This document shows, in pieces, positions 1,981 through 60,989 of a stretch of DNA of 64,000 bases (its first letter is position 1; every line of letters begins with the position of its first letter). The stretch comes from Vicinamibacterales bacterium (GTDB taxonomy: Bacteria; Acidobacteriota; Vicinamibacteria; Vicinamibacterales; UBA2999): positions 9,936 to 73,935 of the forward strand of contig DATDOE010000031.1 in assembly GCA_035293405.1 (NCBI GenBank), written 5' to 3'. The translations under genes were made by a program, and so were the position numbers. The notes beneath the pieces were generated by a model. That model ran no database searches. It was not told where the DNA came from and saw only the letters and a program-made list of their open reading frames with translations.

Positions 1981-2089
1981 AGTAGGCGGTGGACAGTAGG
2001 CAGTAGGCGGTGGGCAGTAAGCAGCGGCCTACCGCTTACTGCGAACCGCCTACCGCCTACCGCCTACCGCCTACCGCCTACTGCCTACT
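1981..2089. repeat. Inverted tandem-heptamer array (GTAGGCR family)
   Basis: About 7 units AGTAGGC/GGTGGAC/AGTAAGC, directly followed by about 8 complementary units TACCGCC/TACTGCC. It fills the gap between two convergent receptor genes. The last unit contains the TAG stop of 2088-5141. Confidence 0.9.
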
Positions 2090-5000
2090 AGAAATCGAAC
2101 TGCACGCTCAGCTTCGCGAACCGCGCCGAGACGAGCGAGGTCGGCTGCAGCCAGACCTGCGGCCTGGTCGGATCGTAATTCTGGAAATACTGGTACACAG
2201 CCCCGGAGTTGAGCAGGTTGAAGAGATCGACCCCGACGTTGGTTCGCGTCCTGCCGAACCGCAGGATCTTCGACACCCGCAGGTCGACCTGGTTGAGTCG
2301 ATCGCCGTAGAGCGTGCCCGGCTCGATGACGTTGACGAACGTGACCGCCGCGTTCCCGGAGAGCGGACGCCCGAGGGAGCCGACGATCGACGGATAGTTG
2401 GCGGGAAGGCCCGGGAAGTTGTTGTTGAACAGGAGAGCATTCGCCAGCAGGCTCTGTGCACCAATCCCCGGGAAGTTGCCGCCCGCGAAGGGTCGGCTCT
2501 GCAGCGTCGCGGCGATCTGCACGTCGACCTTCGGCACGACGTAGGCCGCCAGGCCGCCGACCGAGGTCAGGAACCCCGACGCGATGTCGCAGTACTGCTC
2601 GGGAGTCCGGAACACACCGAACGCCGTCAGCGATTCCGGGACCTGCGCCGTGACATCGCAGTCGTTCCGGGCGCTCTGCCCGATGTTGAGCCCTCCCTGC
2701 AACTGCAGTCCAATCGCCATCCGCGCGTTCACGTTGATATCCACGCCGTTGTAGGTCTCGGACACGCCGTCGCCGAAGTTCTTGGCGTGGGTGATGAAGT
2801 TGTCGAGCCGTCCGAAGGGCACGCCTGCCTTCAGCTCGTAGATTCCCTCCACGCGGTTGCCACCCCCGTTGGGCAGTCGCGGATCCGAGGGAGCCGTGAT
2901 GCTGAACCGATCGTAGTCGGCCGCGGAATACGCGCGATTGTCGGTCACGACCTGGTTGCCCCAACTGCGCCGGACGTAGGTGACTTCGGCCGACACACGC
3001 GGCGCGAGCTGCTGCTGCACGCCGACGCTGAGGTCCCAGCTGTACTCGCGGACGTTCCAACCATTCAGCACCTTCGGGTCGTGGGTCTGGAACGGGGCGT
3101 ACTTGCCGAAGTTCGGGTTGCCAGGGCCACACTCGCCGTTGGCCGCCTGGTTCGTGAGCACGCAGTCGGGTTTGAAGTTAGCGTTGCTGTCGGTCCAGTT
3201 GCGGTTCGTGTTCGTGGAGACACGAAAGGCTGGCTGCTGGGCCCAGCCGTAGGCCCCATAGGAGTTCTCAGCGGTCGGATACCGCCCCAGGCTTGCCTTG
3301 AGCGAGGTCTTGCCGTTGCCGAACAGATCGTAGGCCGCACCAACCCGTGGGTTGATGTCCTTCGGGCTCACACCGGCATCCGTCGCCGCGAACGTCAAGG
3401 CCACCGGGATGTACAGGTCCTCCCCGAAGCGCGCCTCGGGGTAGTAGCTGCCGATGTGTTCGAAGCGCAACCCGCCCTGGAGCGTCAGGCGGTTGATGGT
3501 CCACTGATCCTGCGCGTAGAACGCCGACGTGTACATCTCGAACTGGTTGTTCGCCGCATTGTTCCCGTACATCGTGAGCGACACCGGAGACCCGTTCGTG
3601 AAGGTGTAGCGCAGGCGATAGTTGTTGTAGTAGCTGATGAACGCCGCGTTGGTGCGCTGCTGCCGGCCCCCGACCTTGAAGCGATGCGCGCCGGTGATGT
3701 ACGACAGCGACGCGCTGTAGGTGCGGAGATAGCCATAGTTCCGCTGCGCGTCCTGCCCCCGATACGAGATGCCGGGGACCACTCCCGCGTTCTCCTGGAC
3801 CTCGATCAGCTCGGGATTGTAGCCGTCCGCTCTCTGCTTGTCGCCGAACCAGGCGTCGGGACCCAACCCGAACGAGGCTTCGAGGAGCAACTTGTTCGAG
3901 ATCGGCGATGTCCAGGCGGCCTGCGCCATGCGAATCGGGTTGTGGTTGCTGCCATCCGCCTCGGGCGACAGGGAGCCGGTCGCCAGCGCGCCCGACGCGC
4001 CTCCCGAGAAGCCGCCGCCAATGCATGACTGACAGGTCTTCTGTTCATCCCACCAGATGGAGAAATTGTTGCGCGCCGAGGCCTGCCACGTCAGCCGGAT
4101 ACTCGAGTTCTTCGTGGTGTTGTCGTCGACCGCCTGCACGTTGCCGGGATCGTAGGTCCACTTGGTGGGGTCTCCGGCATTCCGGTTGAGGAAGATCCCG
4201 GCCACGGTATTTCGGCTCCCCGTGTGCCGGGCGGTCCAGTAGAACCACAGCTTGTCCCGGACGATGGGACCACCGACCGACCCGTTGACGTCCCACAGCT
4301 TGACGATCCCGCCGATTTCGCGCAGGCCACCGGCCTGCTGTGCCGCGCTGAGGTTGCTGCCCTGCCACCCGTCACCGGCCCAACTGGTGAACATGGAGCC
4401 GCCCATGGTGTTTCCGCCAGTGCGCGGGACGAGATTCATCTGCGGGCCACCGGTCCCCGCCTCGCCCAGCCCGCCGGTGATCTGGAACGTCACTTCCTGA
4501 GCGCTGCCGACCTCCGGCACGTAGCCGGACACGCCCATGCCCTGCCACCCGGCGCTCAAGCCGTTGATCTGCACCTGACCCTCGTTGCGCCGGCCGCCGT
4601 GGGCCTGAAACACGCTGAAGAGCGCCCCGGTCGCGCCGCCGACATCGGCACCCTGGACGTTGAGCCCCGGCTGAAGCACCGTGAAGGACTGGTAACCGCG
4701 AGCGGACGGGATGGCGGCGATGAGCTCGTTGTCGATGGTCCGTACAGCTTGCGAGCTCTGCACGTCCACGACCGGTGATTCGCCGCTCACGGTGATGGTT
4801 TCGGTCAGCGCGCCGACACGCAGGTCCGTATTGACCGTCGCGACGAACGACCCCTCGAGTTTGATCCCATCACGCACCGTCGTGTTGAAGCCGCTCAGCG
4901 TAAACGTGACCGTGTAGGTCCCCGGCCGGAGATCGACGATGCGGTACTGGCCGCTCCCGTCGGAGACAACCGACCGGGCCTTCTCGATCAATGCCGGACT

Positions 5001-59547: not shown

Positions 59548-60896
59548 ACGCCACCGAGCGCGCGCGCCTCGCCGACGAGCTGCTGCGACGGCTGGCGGCC
59601 ACCATTCGCGGATCGCAGCTCTATGCGCCCGGCCACCCGCTGGTCACACGCAGCATCACGGCGCTCGCCGACACCCTGGTGCTCGTCCATGCGGCGATGC
59701 CCTCGGTCGCGATCGGCATCGTCGGCGATGAGCTCGTCGTCGGCGATATCCCGGTCCCCCGCGCCGCCGAGACGATGGGCGAGCTGATGCGACGTTTGCA
59801 ACACGCCGGCATCGAACGCATCGTCATCGATCGCGGCGTGCAGATCGACGAGATCATGCGCCTCGTCGAAACGGTGTCTCGCGCGGACTCTGGCGACCAG
59901 ACGGCGGCGCTCTCGCGCTTGCCGCACATTCGCGTCGGACGCCTGCAGGTTGACGATCCGGTCGACACGACCGTTGGCGACATCGCGACGTTCCGCAAGC
60001 TGTACGACGATGCGGTGAAGGTGGCCGAGACACTGTGGGAGAGCGCGGGCGTCGAGGGCATCCCCGACGCCGACGCCGCCCGCGGCATGGTCGATTCGCT
60101 GGCCCAGGCCGTGGCGCAGAACCGGACGGCGCTGCTCGCGCTCACCGCGCTCAAGAACTACGACAACTACACCTTCACGCACATGGTCAACGTGTCGATC
60201 CTCACGATGGGACAGGCACGCGGCGTGGGCATCGATGGTCCGCTGCTCCGCGAGTTCGGGCTCTCGGCGCTCATGCACGACATCGGCAAGGTCAAGACGC
60301 CGAATGAAATTCTCAACAAGCCGGACAAGCTGACCGAGCAGGAATACGAGATCCTCAAGCGACACACAGTCGACGGCGCGCAGATTCTACGGAAGACCCC
60401 GGAGATGCCGACCCTGGCCCCCATCGTCGCCTTCGAGCATCACCTGCGCGCTGACGGCACGGGCTACCCACACGCCGAGCGAACGCAGTTGAACCTCGGC
60501 ACCACGCTGTGCGGCATCGCCGACGTCTACGATGCGATGCGCTCGCAGCGGGTCTATCAGCCGGCGTTTCCAACCGATCGCATTCTGGCGGTGCTGCAGC
60601 GGAACGACGGCAAGCAGTTCGATCAGCACCTGGTCCGACGATTCGTGCAACTGGTCGGCATCTACCCGGCGGGCAATCTCGTACGACTCGACGGCGGCGA
60701 GATCGCGGTCGTGCTCGAGGCGCACGCGCCGGATCCGTACCGCCCCCGGGTTCGGATCCTGATCGGCCGCGACGGCGTCGCCCTCGAGAAGCCGGGCGAG
60801 GTCAATCTCTGGGAGGCAGAGGAGGGCGCCGCCAACGCGATCCAATCACCGCTCGATCCCGCCGAGTACGGGATCGATCCGTTGATACACCTGTAA
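59544..60896 (+). CDS. HD-GYP domain protein (putative c-di-GMP phosphodiesterase)
   Basis: HMVNVS...LMHDIGK...LT..E...LK.HT..GA.IL...HH.R.DGTGYP. Confidence 0.8.
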   Translation: MNATERARLADELLRRLAATIRGSQLYAPGHPLVTRSITALADTLVLVHAAMPSVAIGIVGDELVVGDIPVPRAAETMGELMRRLQHAGIERIVIDRGVQIDEIMRLVETVSRADSGDQTAALSRLPHIRVGRLQVDDPVDTTVGDIATFRKLYDDAVKVAETLWESAGVEGIPDADAARGMVDSLAQAVAQNRTALLALTALKNYDNYTFTHMVNVSILTMGQARGVGIDGPLLREFGLSALMHDIGKVKTPNEILNKPDKLTEQEYEILKRHTVDGAQILRKTPEMPTLAPIVAFEHHLRADGTGYPHAERTQLNLGTTLCGIADVYDAMRSQRVYQPAFPTDRILAVLQRNDGKQFDQHLVRRFVQLVGIYPAGNLVRLDGGEIAVVLEAHAPDPYRPRVRILIGRDGVALEKPGEVNLWEAEEGAANAIQSPLDPAEYGIDPLIHL

Positions 60897-60989
60897 CAAC
60901 GCCCAACTCCCAATCCGAACCTGGGGCCAACTCCCAACTCCCAACTCCCAACCAAGAACCAAGAACCAAGAACCAAGAACCAAGAATTG
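60897..60989. repeat. Compound direct heptamer array (CAACTCC-type units followed by 5 x CAAGAAC)
   Basis: It begins right after the HD-GYP TAA stop. No inverted arm is present. Confidence 0.85.

Follow-up and report, generated by a model that had tools for sequence, protein, structure and literature searches.

Intergenic arrays of 7- to 9-nt tandem repeats, about half of them paired as inverted arms, in a 64-kb stretch of Acidobacteriota-like soil-metagenome DNA

Introduction

Short tandem repeats that form pairs of arrays on opposite DNA strands have been described in several bacteria. In Xanthomonas campestris and X. axonopodis, arrays of the heptamer GGGAATC form 70-75 convergent opposite-strand pairs (Rehm et al. 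2015, PMC4692102). These arrays are 89-93% intergenic, lie near the upstream open reading frame (ORF), can form stem-loops or cruciforms, and occupy sites in related species with variation in length and sequence (PMC4692102). A report on Geobacter metallireducens describes 'putative global regulator binding sites' of classes 1-3, present in tens of copies per genome, in which three to five tandem 7-9-nt units are paired on opposite strands at variable distance; the units are the octamer GTTGCTYN, the 8-9-mer TCTCCGTS[Y] and the heptamer ATTCTGA/CTCCTGA (Aklujkar et al. 2009, PMC2700814). Here we analyze a 64-kb stretch of DNA (the window) from the 79-kb soil-metagenome contig ENA ERZ27254861 k141_2230206, whose intergenic spacers carry many tandem arrays of 7-9-nt units, about half of them built as two inverted arms. 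We propose the name tandem-repeat palindromes for these elements.

Repetitive extragenic palindromes (REPs), and the bacterial interspersed mosaic elements (BIMEs) and REP doublets forming hairpins (REPINs) related to them, are dispersed extragenic hairpin families, several of which may occur in one genome, and they are long-lived at orthologous sites. A REPIN consists of two inverted copies around a spacer, and the head of the REP is reportedly GTAG. The short tandemly repeated repetitive (STRR) elements of heterocystous cyanobacteria have units such as CCCCAGT, TTGGTCA and CAACAGT. An excess of heptamer tandem repeats in many bacterial genomes has been reported since 2007; Mrazek et al. (2007) reportedly described it under long simple sequence repeats (SSRs) and proposed polymerase slippage. 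TAACTGA repeats of marine Beggiatoaceae have a single unit, are strongly oriented 5' of start codons and include one inverted case among 170 sets (MacGregor 2015, PMC4679880).

Results

Tandem arrays occupy the intergenic spacers of the window

We analyzed the window, which has a G+C content of 64.9%, by Tandem Repeats Finder (TRF) and identified 23 arrays with a period of 5-11 and at least 2.8 copies, 17 of which had a score of at least 43. Fifty dinucleotide-preserving shuffles gave a mean of 2.0 arrays overall and 0.06 at the higher score. Genes were mapped from the G+C content of third codon positions (GC3), and the map was corrected by translations and family matches. Intergenic DNA made up 6.9% of the window yet held 83% of the array bases; at least 16% of the intergenic DNA consisted of arrays, and 15 of the 34 spacers of 20 nt or more carried one. 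The tandem arrays in the window are real, non-random and strongly intergenic, and the intergenic bias proposed in a preliminary description of this DNA was borne out. TRF and direct reading also recovered the repeat unit that the description had placed at each locus, except that the run at 5215-5244, where the units are present, fell below the TRF score threshold of 30. Its list lacked the arrays at 23773-23824, 31525-31549 and 50382-50423. On the other hand, the count of at least 13 loci sharing one inverted architecture was too high. Two inverted arms were found at seven loci (1981, 17976, 25349, 27768, 32595, 37767 and 51935) and the remainder were direct-only, so that about half are inverted. 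The run at 54427-54468, which had been listed as inverted, is a weak direct one (z -2.4).

Each inverted element consists of two complementary arms, with 3-14 copies of a 7-9-nt unit per arm, and a loop that is variable in sequence; at some loci only one arm is present, as a direct array. RNA folding of the seven two-arm loci gave -27 to -73 kcal/mol (z -3.2 to -7.9), and folding the arms, as proposed earlier, thus gave very stable hairpins for about half of the loci. The units within an arm are tandem 7-9-mers without self-complementarity, unlike the 20-40-nt unit of a REP, which is itself an imperfect palindrome. With stems of 24-45 bp, a T run that is mostly absent, and occupancy that extends to divergent spacers, the elements also differ from intrinsic terminators, and canonical terminators are present separately from the arrays (e.g., at ~41405-41440). 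An Rfam scan of the window gave no family match at gathering score, and a full-text literature search with the array sequences as terms returned irrelevant matches only.

A limited set of families recurs with a fixed order of arms

The preliminary description held that the repeat unit differs between loci. Several units do exist, but a limited number of families recur across loci and relatives: within the 64 kb alone, AATGCAA was found twice, GTAGGCR three times and CGTTCGGAY twice. A scan with the MtdB protein identified 80 soil-metagenome loci with 60-83% identity. Across their 453 kb we counted 187 arrays, and the period was 7 in 119 of these. The larger families of the window were found again in these mtdB relatives (AATGCAA, CACGGAG/CACGAAG, CAACTCC, (G)GTAGCTG, GGTTCNG and CGTTCG-type). 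We also scanned genomes, one per species, with GTAGGCRGTAGGCRGTAGGC and obtained at least 120 loci, which were analyzed as 8-kb stretches. Among the 120 matches listed, tallied by record title, 42 were from Acidobacteriota, 24 from Bacteroidota, 22 from Pseudomonadota and 14 from Planctomycetota, with the remaining ones from Chloroflexota, Verrucomicrobiota, Gemmatimonadota, Cyanobacteria and others. Period 7 was the commonest in these stretches (332 of 458 arrays). The GTAGGCR palindromes among the matches listed had common ends, CAGTAGGC...GCCTACTG, around unrelated loops of 1-76 nt, and palindromes with the same ends occurred in Acidobacteriota, Planctomycetota, Bacteroidota, Chloroflexota, Alphaproteobacteria and Cyanobacteria. 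The architecture is thus found outside the window, in the 80 soil-metagenome loci and in over 100 of the genome loci, as the preliminary description had expected.

We collected 43 inverted pairs from the window and the mtdB loci and, among the matches listed, 66 from the genome loci. The order of the arms was constant within each family: GTAGGCR, AATGCAA and CACGGAG preceded their complements, and CAACTCC preceded GGGAGTT. No reversed order within a family was seen in the window, the mtdB relatives or the genome loci listed. A universal rule that the purine-rich arm comes first was ruled out, since the CAACTCC, GTCCTTG and CGTTCGT families are pyrimidine-first. Addition of repeats to both ends of a DNA break, in the manner of a telomere fusion, was ruled out with the arm-order rule; in addition, the loops often hold hairpins of their own, which that model does not predict. 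We also rejected the idea that the units generally carry stop codons in all frames, since 74 of 116 unit types were free of stops on both strands. When the units were assessed for a GTAG/GTGG head, GTAG was found in the GTAGGCR and (G)GTAGCTG units and in 13 of the 116 unit types altogether, about twice the chance level; it therefore cannot explain most families, and the true GTAG palindromes are separate from the arrays.

Inherited and altered elements, other families and empty sites at the mtdB junctions

The mtdB gene belongs to a tetrahydromethanopterin (H4MPT)-linked C1-transfer set at 15277-26898 (fhcD, fhcB, fhcA, fhcC, an ATP-grasp gene, DUF1464, mtdB and fae), and its neighbourhood is kept in many soil-metagenome relatives. 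The mtdB/DUF1464 junction was found in several states among these relatives. It was empty, with the mtdB stop overlapping or abutting the DUF1464 start; it carried the element TAATGCAAGATGCAAAATGCAAAATGCAAAC - loop - GTTTGCATTTTGCATTTTGAATTAC, with four heptads per arm, in which TAA is the mtdB stop; it carried a unit altered in both arms together (AATKCAG/CTGMATT and AATTTGG/CCAAATT); or it carried another family (CACGGAG, GGTCCTTG or CGTTCGT). Some loops were recognisably homologous, namely that of the window with that of L194, and those of L156, L164 and L184 among themselves, indicating that the AATGCAA element has been vertically inherited at this junction. In nine orthologous AATGCAA elements the arms were 88% identical while the 4-fold sites of mtdB were 46% identical (chance, 35%), and the loops had diverged. 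In a covariation alignment of 16 elements, registered by hand, 89.5% of the cells paired and 13 of 28 pairs showed changes on both sides, a level reached by none of 500 shuffles; shifting the partner by one to three columns lowered pairing to 24-45%. When both are read along one DNA strand, the two AATGCAA copies of the window share 96.6% identity, although they have opposite orientation to their genes and unrelated loops.

Relatives that were ~94% identical in amino acid sequence over the last 250 MtdB codons had an empty mtdB/DUF1464 site or a different family there. The same relatives had differing families between fae and mtdB, freely combined with a filled or empty mtdB/DUF1464 site. The fae-to-mtdB junction gave 41 distinct spacers, 7 of 9-13 nt and 34 of more than 20 nt, and 32 of the 34 longer ones folded at -20 kcal/mol or better. 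The folding spacers comprised GC-rich terminators, some with a direct array 5' of them, as well as palindromes of the array, long unique and REP-like types; array palindromes are thus interchangeable with ordinary hairpins at this junction. In some relatives the fae-mtdB and mtdB-downstream junctions also held a dispersed family of palindromes that lack tandem repeats, CAACGCAGAGC ... GCTCTGCGTTG (L130, L132, L134 and L135), and in others long unique perfect palindromes (L145 and L151).

Placement of the arrays and strand symmetry of the stems

Arrays extend as far as the adjoining stop and start codons and several overlap a stop, and the stop codons of fhcC and mtdB lie within the first repeat unit of the adjoining arrays. 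In the window and 50 related loci, 85% of the array bases were non-coding. Arrays within ORFs amounted to 6 of 16 where the period was a multiple of 3 and to 7 of 89 for other periods. Counts by spacer type in these loci, made with a rough GC3-based gene caller, indicated no preference: convergent spacers carried arrays in 9 of 31 cases, tandem ones in 43 of 219 and divergent ones in 9 of 39. The gene names in the preliminary description were correct, and so was the placement of arrays within operons (fhcB/fhcA, mtdB/DUF1464 and mtnA/tsaD); these arrays would therefore be transcribed. We assessed by G-U asymmetry whether the sense strand forms the more stable stem, and found no bias at the mtdB junction (17 elements favoured sense, 10 did not) or in the window (antisense was favoured at three of the five oriented loci). 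Since there was neither a sense bias nor a context preference, and since the identity of the paralogs is linked to the DNA strand, the evidence favours a process at the DNA level as the main cause.

Individual loci and neighbouring elements

Table 1. Tandem arrays and tandem-repeat palindromes of the window
Positions	Type	Units, arms and loop	RNA fold (kcal/mol; z)	Context
1981-2089	GTAGGCR palindrome	5' arm 1981-2024 (AGTAGGC x6.3); 3' arm 2027-2089 (GCCTACC x8.9)	-73.1; -7.5	Flanked by convergent TonB-type receptor genes; last unit overlaps the stop (2088-2090) of the - strand gene
5215-5244	Weak direct run	~3 imperfect GCTACYR units		Flanked by two co-directional receptor genes
17976-18050	AATGCAA palindrome	4 heptads per arm, 16-nt loop	-26.9; -5.2	Begins 4 nt past fhcB stop, upstream of fhcA
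20943-20984	Direct array	(TAGCTGG)x4.6		First TAG is the fhcC stop codon; REPIN-like double hairpin next (20999-21064)
23773-23824	9-mer array	(CGTTCGGAC)x5.8		- strand; in-frame coding within ATP-grasp ORF
25349-25466	AATGCAA palindrome	4 heptads per arm, 52-nt loop		Between mtdB and DUF1464; includes mtdB stop TAA (25464-25466); orthologous copies in relatives
27768-27831	CACGGAGR octamer palindrome	3 units per arm	-44.7; -7.9	Between DUF6152 gene and next gene start
31525-31549	Weak direct array	(AGGTCAA)x3.6		3 nt from leuB-like gene stop
32595-32693	CACGAAGGN 9-mer palindrome	3.7 + 3.8 units	-48.9; -7.9	99 of 122 nt of divergent spacer between leuB-like and PQQ dehydrogenase genes
37767-37850	GTAGGCR palindrome	(GTAGGCG)x4.9 + (TGCCTAC)x5.6, 1 mismatch per heptad	-57; -7.4	Divergent spacer; next on the - strand come TTTTT, AAGGAG and the receptor gene ATG (37748)
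41484-41520	Weak direct array	GAACCNN		Between hairpin-plus-T terminator (~41405-41440) and stop of a - strand gene
49245-49289	Direct array, non-coding	(ATCGTTCGG)x5		Between stop at 49301 and ABC ATPase gene ATG at 49236
50382-50423	Weak direct run	GGTTCNG/GTTCTCA		Between YjbQ-family and NUDIX genes
51935-52087	GTAGGCR palindrome	(GGCAGTA)x14 perfect copies, 29-nt loop, (CTGCCTA)x3.7		3' arm 52066-52087 encodes last MtnA residues (stop 52066); other end is the base before tsaD ATG (51934)
54427-54468	Direct 9-mer run, not inverted	CACAAAGGA-type, 2.9 copies		5' of purine nucleoside phosphorylase ATG
60897-60989	Two adjoining direct arrays	(CCAACTC)x3.7 + (AACCAAG)x5.3		Start 1 nt past stop codon

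The coding array at 23773 and the non-coding array at 49245 belong to one 9-mer family. The former encodes DPNDPNDPNGPNGPNGPN, (D/G)PN x6, within a linker that immediately precedes the ATP-grasp domain, and the gene that carries it is a member of the H4MPT-linked cluster. At 37767 the two arms have been homogenised separately, with G in one and A in the other at the same unit position. Judged from its sequence, this hairpin together with the TTTTT and AAGGAG that follow it resembles a terminator or attenuator in a 5' leader. The same hairpin stands at the far end of a 470-nt non-coding, AT-rich-looking stretch (37851-38324) 5' of a TonB-type receptor gene (ATG 38325). A scan of the divergent spacer at 32595 for sigma-70 promoters and terminators found nothing. 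A TATACT hexamer (32690-32708) borders the 9-mer palindrome 6 nt 5' of the PQQ-dehydrogenase ATG, and may be a sign of a leaderless transcript.

Palindromes of the classical kind were found beside the arrays. An identical perfect GTAG-headed palindrome, GTAGGGGCGACGC-AT-GCGTCGCCCCTAC, occurs in two copies, at 26357-26384 in the fae-mtdB spacer and at 34723-34750 between convergent genes, and by its sequence this pair resembles a REP family of the classical type. Two REPIN-like doublets (8629-8701 and 20999-21064) each contain two small GC-rich inverted hairpins with GTAG/CTAC; the heads point outward at 20999, directly after the TAGCTGG array, and inward at 8629. The classical GTAG palindromes in the window make a REP-type system in this genome plausible.

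By gene content the host looks Acidobacteriota-like. TonB-type receptors with CarboxypepD_reg and OMP_b-brl_4 domains are encoded in the window, and a TIGR04528 'acido-empty-quinoprotein' PQQ-type dehydrogenase is a second pointer to Acidobacteriota, as is the H4MPT-linked C1 cluster. The fhcA-fhcC spacer (~375 nt, 19758-20132) is free of arrays and has a strong fold and no Rfam match; it contains a long-range inverted repeat (GAGGATCGCGAATCCC near 19929, GGGATTCGCGATCCTC near 20088). A period-33 tandem repeat (2.3 copies, 91% matches) is located at 13689-13765, within the 5' part of a Trans_reg_C regulator ORF or adjacent to it, and has a gene for a 1150-aa KAP-family NTPase as its neighbour. 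An unannotated ORF of ~290-320 aa comes after each of two DUF6152 paralogs (9612-10070 and 27846-28481), and the two ORFs showed no detectable similarity to each other (BLASTP E = 2.3).

Discussion

We regard the arrays, with about even confidence, as REP/BIME-like dispersed, family-structured intergenic hairpins. Replication slippage would lengthen and shorten them, and the 14 perfect copies at 51935 and the separately homogenised arms at 37767 point in this direction. The complementarity of the arms would be kept by inter-arm copying, whether as intrastrand template switching or as gene conversion, by selection on the stem, or by both, while some sequence-specific constraint or homogenising process would hold the identity of a family across loci and lineages. 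Selection would restrict the elements to non-coding DNA or, for the 9-mers, to in-frame sites, which may be why arrays abut stop and start codons. Effects on the transcript would be secondary. A transcript across an inverted element would have to fold into a stem of 24-45 bp, which is long enough for an RNase III substrate. Such a stem could serve as a pause or termination site, as a barrier to 3' exonucleases or as an RNase III target at operon junctions, and an effect of this kind may be the reason for retention there.

Several observations weigh against this reading. Neither a transposase nor a RAYT or reverse transcriptase was found in the ORFs scanned or annotated in the 64-kb window, and no conserved neighbour gene family was found at the GTAGGCR loci among the 120 matches listed, where the largest cluster comprised 8 loci. 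Paralogous copies have unrelated loops and no target-site duplication was seen in them; simple whole-element copy-and-paste is therefore not supported. Complementarity and covariation cannot separate inter-arm DNA copying from selection on an RNA stem, the covariation alignment was one registered by hand, and genes in the related loci were called with a rough GC3-based caller. Furthermore, sharing across phyla of families other than GTAGGCR, such as CAACTCC or AATGCAA, was by estimate not above chance at one-mismatch clustering.

That the arrays are artefacts of short-read metagenome assembly, a concern raised in the preliminary description itself, is effectively refuted. The contig of the window is MEGAHIT-style k141, and JGI contig L202, from another sample, breaks inside the longest array, within the (TACTGCC)14 run. 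However, L202 is 100% identical to the window over 4794 nt that include the arrays at 49245 and 50382, and an independent identical contig across two arrays indicates that the arrays are not artefacts. All arrays in the window are also shorter than the assembler k of 141, and the same architecture was found in isolate genomes (Mesorhizobium and Neolewinella) and in contig L074, which has the record name of an Oxford Nanopore Technologies (ONT) bin. Improbable, though less so, is a purely local and neutral origin, in which slippage gives birth to the arrays and quasi-palindrome correction shapes them with neither dispersal nor function. Perfect multi-copy runs, arrays that fill the available spacer up to the flanking codons, filled and empty sites, and the slippage to which Mrazek et al. 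(2007) reportedly ascribed the bacterial heptamer excess are all consistent with it. Such an origin does not account for the same unit, arm order and terminal sequence at unrelated loci, in relatives and in different phyla, nor for arms far more conserved than 4-fold sites, and partial data indicate many copies per family with conserved ends. Still more improbable is that the elements are double-stranded arrays of sites for an abundant DNA-binding protein, with the arms as two opposite site clusters and not a hairpin. Arm sequence conserved beyond pairing, the fixed arm order, the variable distance between arms and a stability independent of the direction of transcription would all suit a bound protein, and nucleoid proteins of the IHF/HU type were proposed for the Geobacter sites by Aklujkar et al. 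(PMC2700814), although that proposal is itself speculative. The eight or more unrelated unit families in 64 kb would then need as many specificities, the two arms change their unit jointly from lineage to lineage (AATGCAA, AATKCAG, AATTTGG), and copy number varies from 3 to 14.

The RNA stem could also be what is primarily selected. The elements would then be cis-acting stem-loops, i.e., terminators or attenuators, 3'-end protectors or RNase III sites that set cistron ratios, for which tandem arms offer an easy, register-tolerant route to a long stem. We consider this possible but rather doubtful. The stems are very stable, their position is conserved with compensatory changes, nearly all non-minimal fae-to-mtdB spacers are hairpins of some type, the - strand stem at 37767 is followed by TTTTT, the 3' arms of the AATGCAA elements are U-rich, and the Xanthomonas arrays lie near the upstream ORF (PMC4692102). 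However, the sense strand is no more stable than the antisense strand, and the elements are similarly frequent in divergent, promoter-side spacers (e.g., 32595 and 37767). A fae-mtdB spacer of 9-13 nt in seven lineages, together with many lineages that have no element after mtdB, indicates that the stem is dispensable. Furthermore, arm sequence is conserved beyond what pairing demands, and direct-only arrays can form no stem. The REP/BIME-like reading could be extended to a pan-bacterial class that is actively maintained or mobilised by its own sequence-specific machinery, whether a RAYT-like enzyme or something else; we think this unlikely. It would explain why identical unit families of fixed arm order are met in Acidobacteriota, in Desulfobacterota (the class 2 and class 3 sites of Geobacter) and in Planctomycetota, Bacteroidota, Alphaproteobacteria and others; it would also explain arms that stay 88% identical while neutral sites are saturated, and paralogous arms that are homogenised around unrelated loops. 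With such machinery, the GTAG-containing families would be expansions of a REP head recognised by RAYT.

The window is an unusually dense, many-family case of the heptamer excess. Compared with earlier descriptions, what is new is the arm order fixed for each family, arms conserved beyond neutral sites around free loops, and sites that are filled, empty or occupied by another family in close relatives, along with families shared with relatives and, for GTAGGCR, across many phyla. If a dedicated maintenance system exists, these elements would represent a new type of REP-like genome inhabitant across phyla. Otherwise, they are long near-perfect stems in operon transcripts that likely shape termination and mRNA decay in Acidobacteria; they also break short-read assemblies.

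The preliminary description took the STRR sequences of cyanobacteria for the nearest precedent and a genome with inverted arrays for a different case. Inverted pairs had in fact been published (PMC4692102, PMC2700814), and those of Xanthomonas and G. metallireducens are closer; given these pairs, the architecture is of a known but uncharacterised kind. STRR sequences share tandem heptamers, a mostly intergenic location and several families per genome, but their units are others, their arrays are mostly direct and their phylum is different, so that the arrays of the window do not belong among them. The TAACTGA repeats and long SSRs are similar in their intergenic heptamer excess, in arrays that abut start codons and in sporadic distribution among phyla, whereas TAACTGA is almost exclusively direct and has one unit. 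The STRR sequences and the TAACTGA repeats are more distant relatives than the Xanthomonas and Geobacter pairs. Like REPs, the elements are dispersed extragenic hairpin families that are long-lived at orthologous sites; the GTAG head of REPs resembles the GTAGGCR and GGTAGCTG units, and classical GTAG-headed palindromes lie in the same window. They differ in that the arms are tandem repeats that are not individually palindromic and in that most unit types lack GTAG.

Xanthomonas offers tandem heptamers, intergenic bias, opposite-strand pairs of fixed orientation and shared sites with variation, all of which we found here. It differs in its phylum and in its one dominant G-rich unit, studied as a G-quadruplex (G4) former, whereas the window has at least eight families of 7, 8 and 9 nt, mostly incapable of forming G4, and an in-frame coding member. 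As for Geobacter, the class 2 consensus TCTCCGTS[Y] x3 matches the arms at 27768-27831 when compared by consensus. Class 1 there has insertion sequence (IS) elements at a fixed distance, which we did not see here. The reading of these sites as IHF/HU sites was the authors' guess (PMC2700814). The class 3 heptamer ATTCTGA has the same unit and the same arm order as the AATTCAG elements in the relatives of the window.

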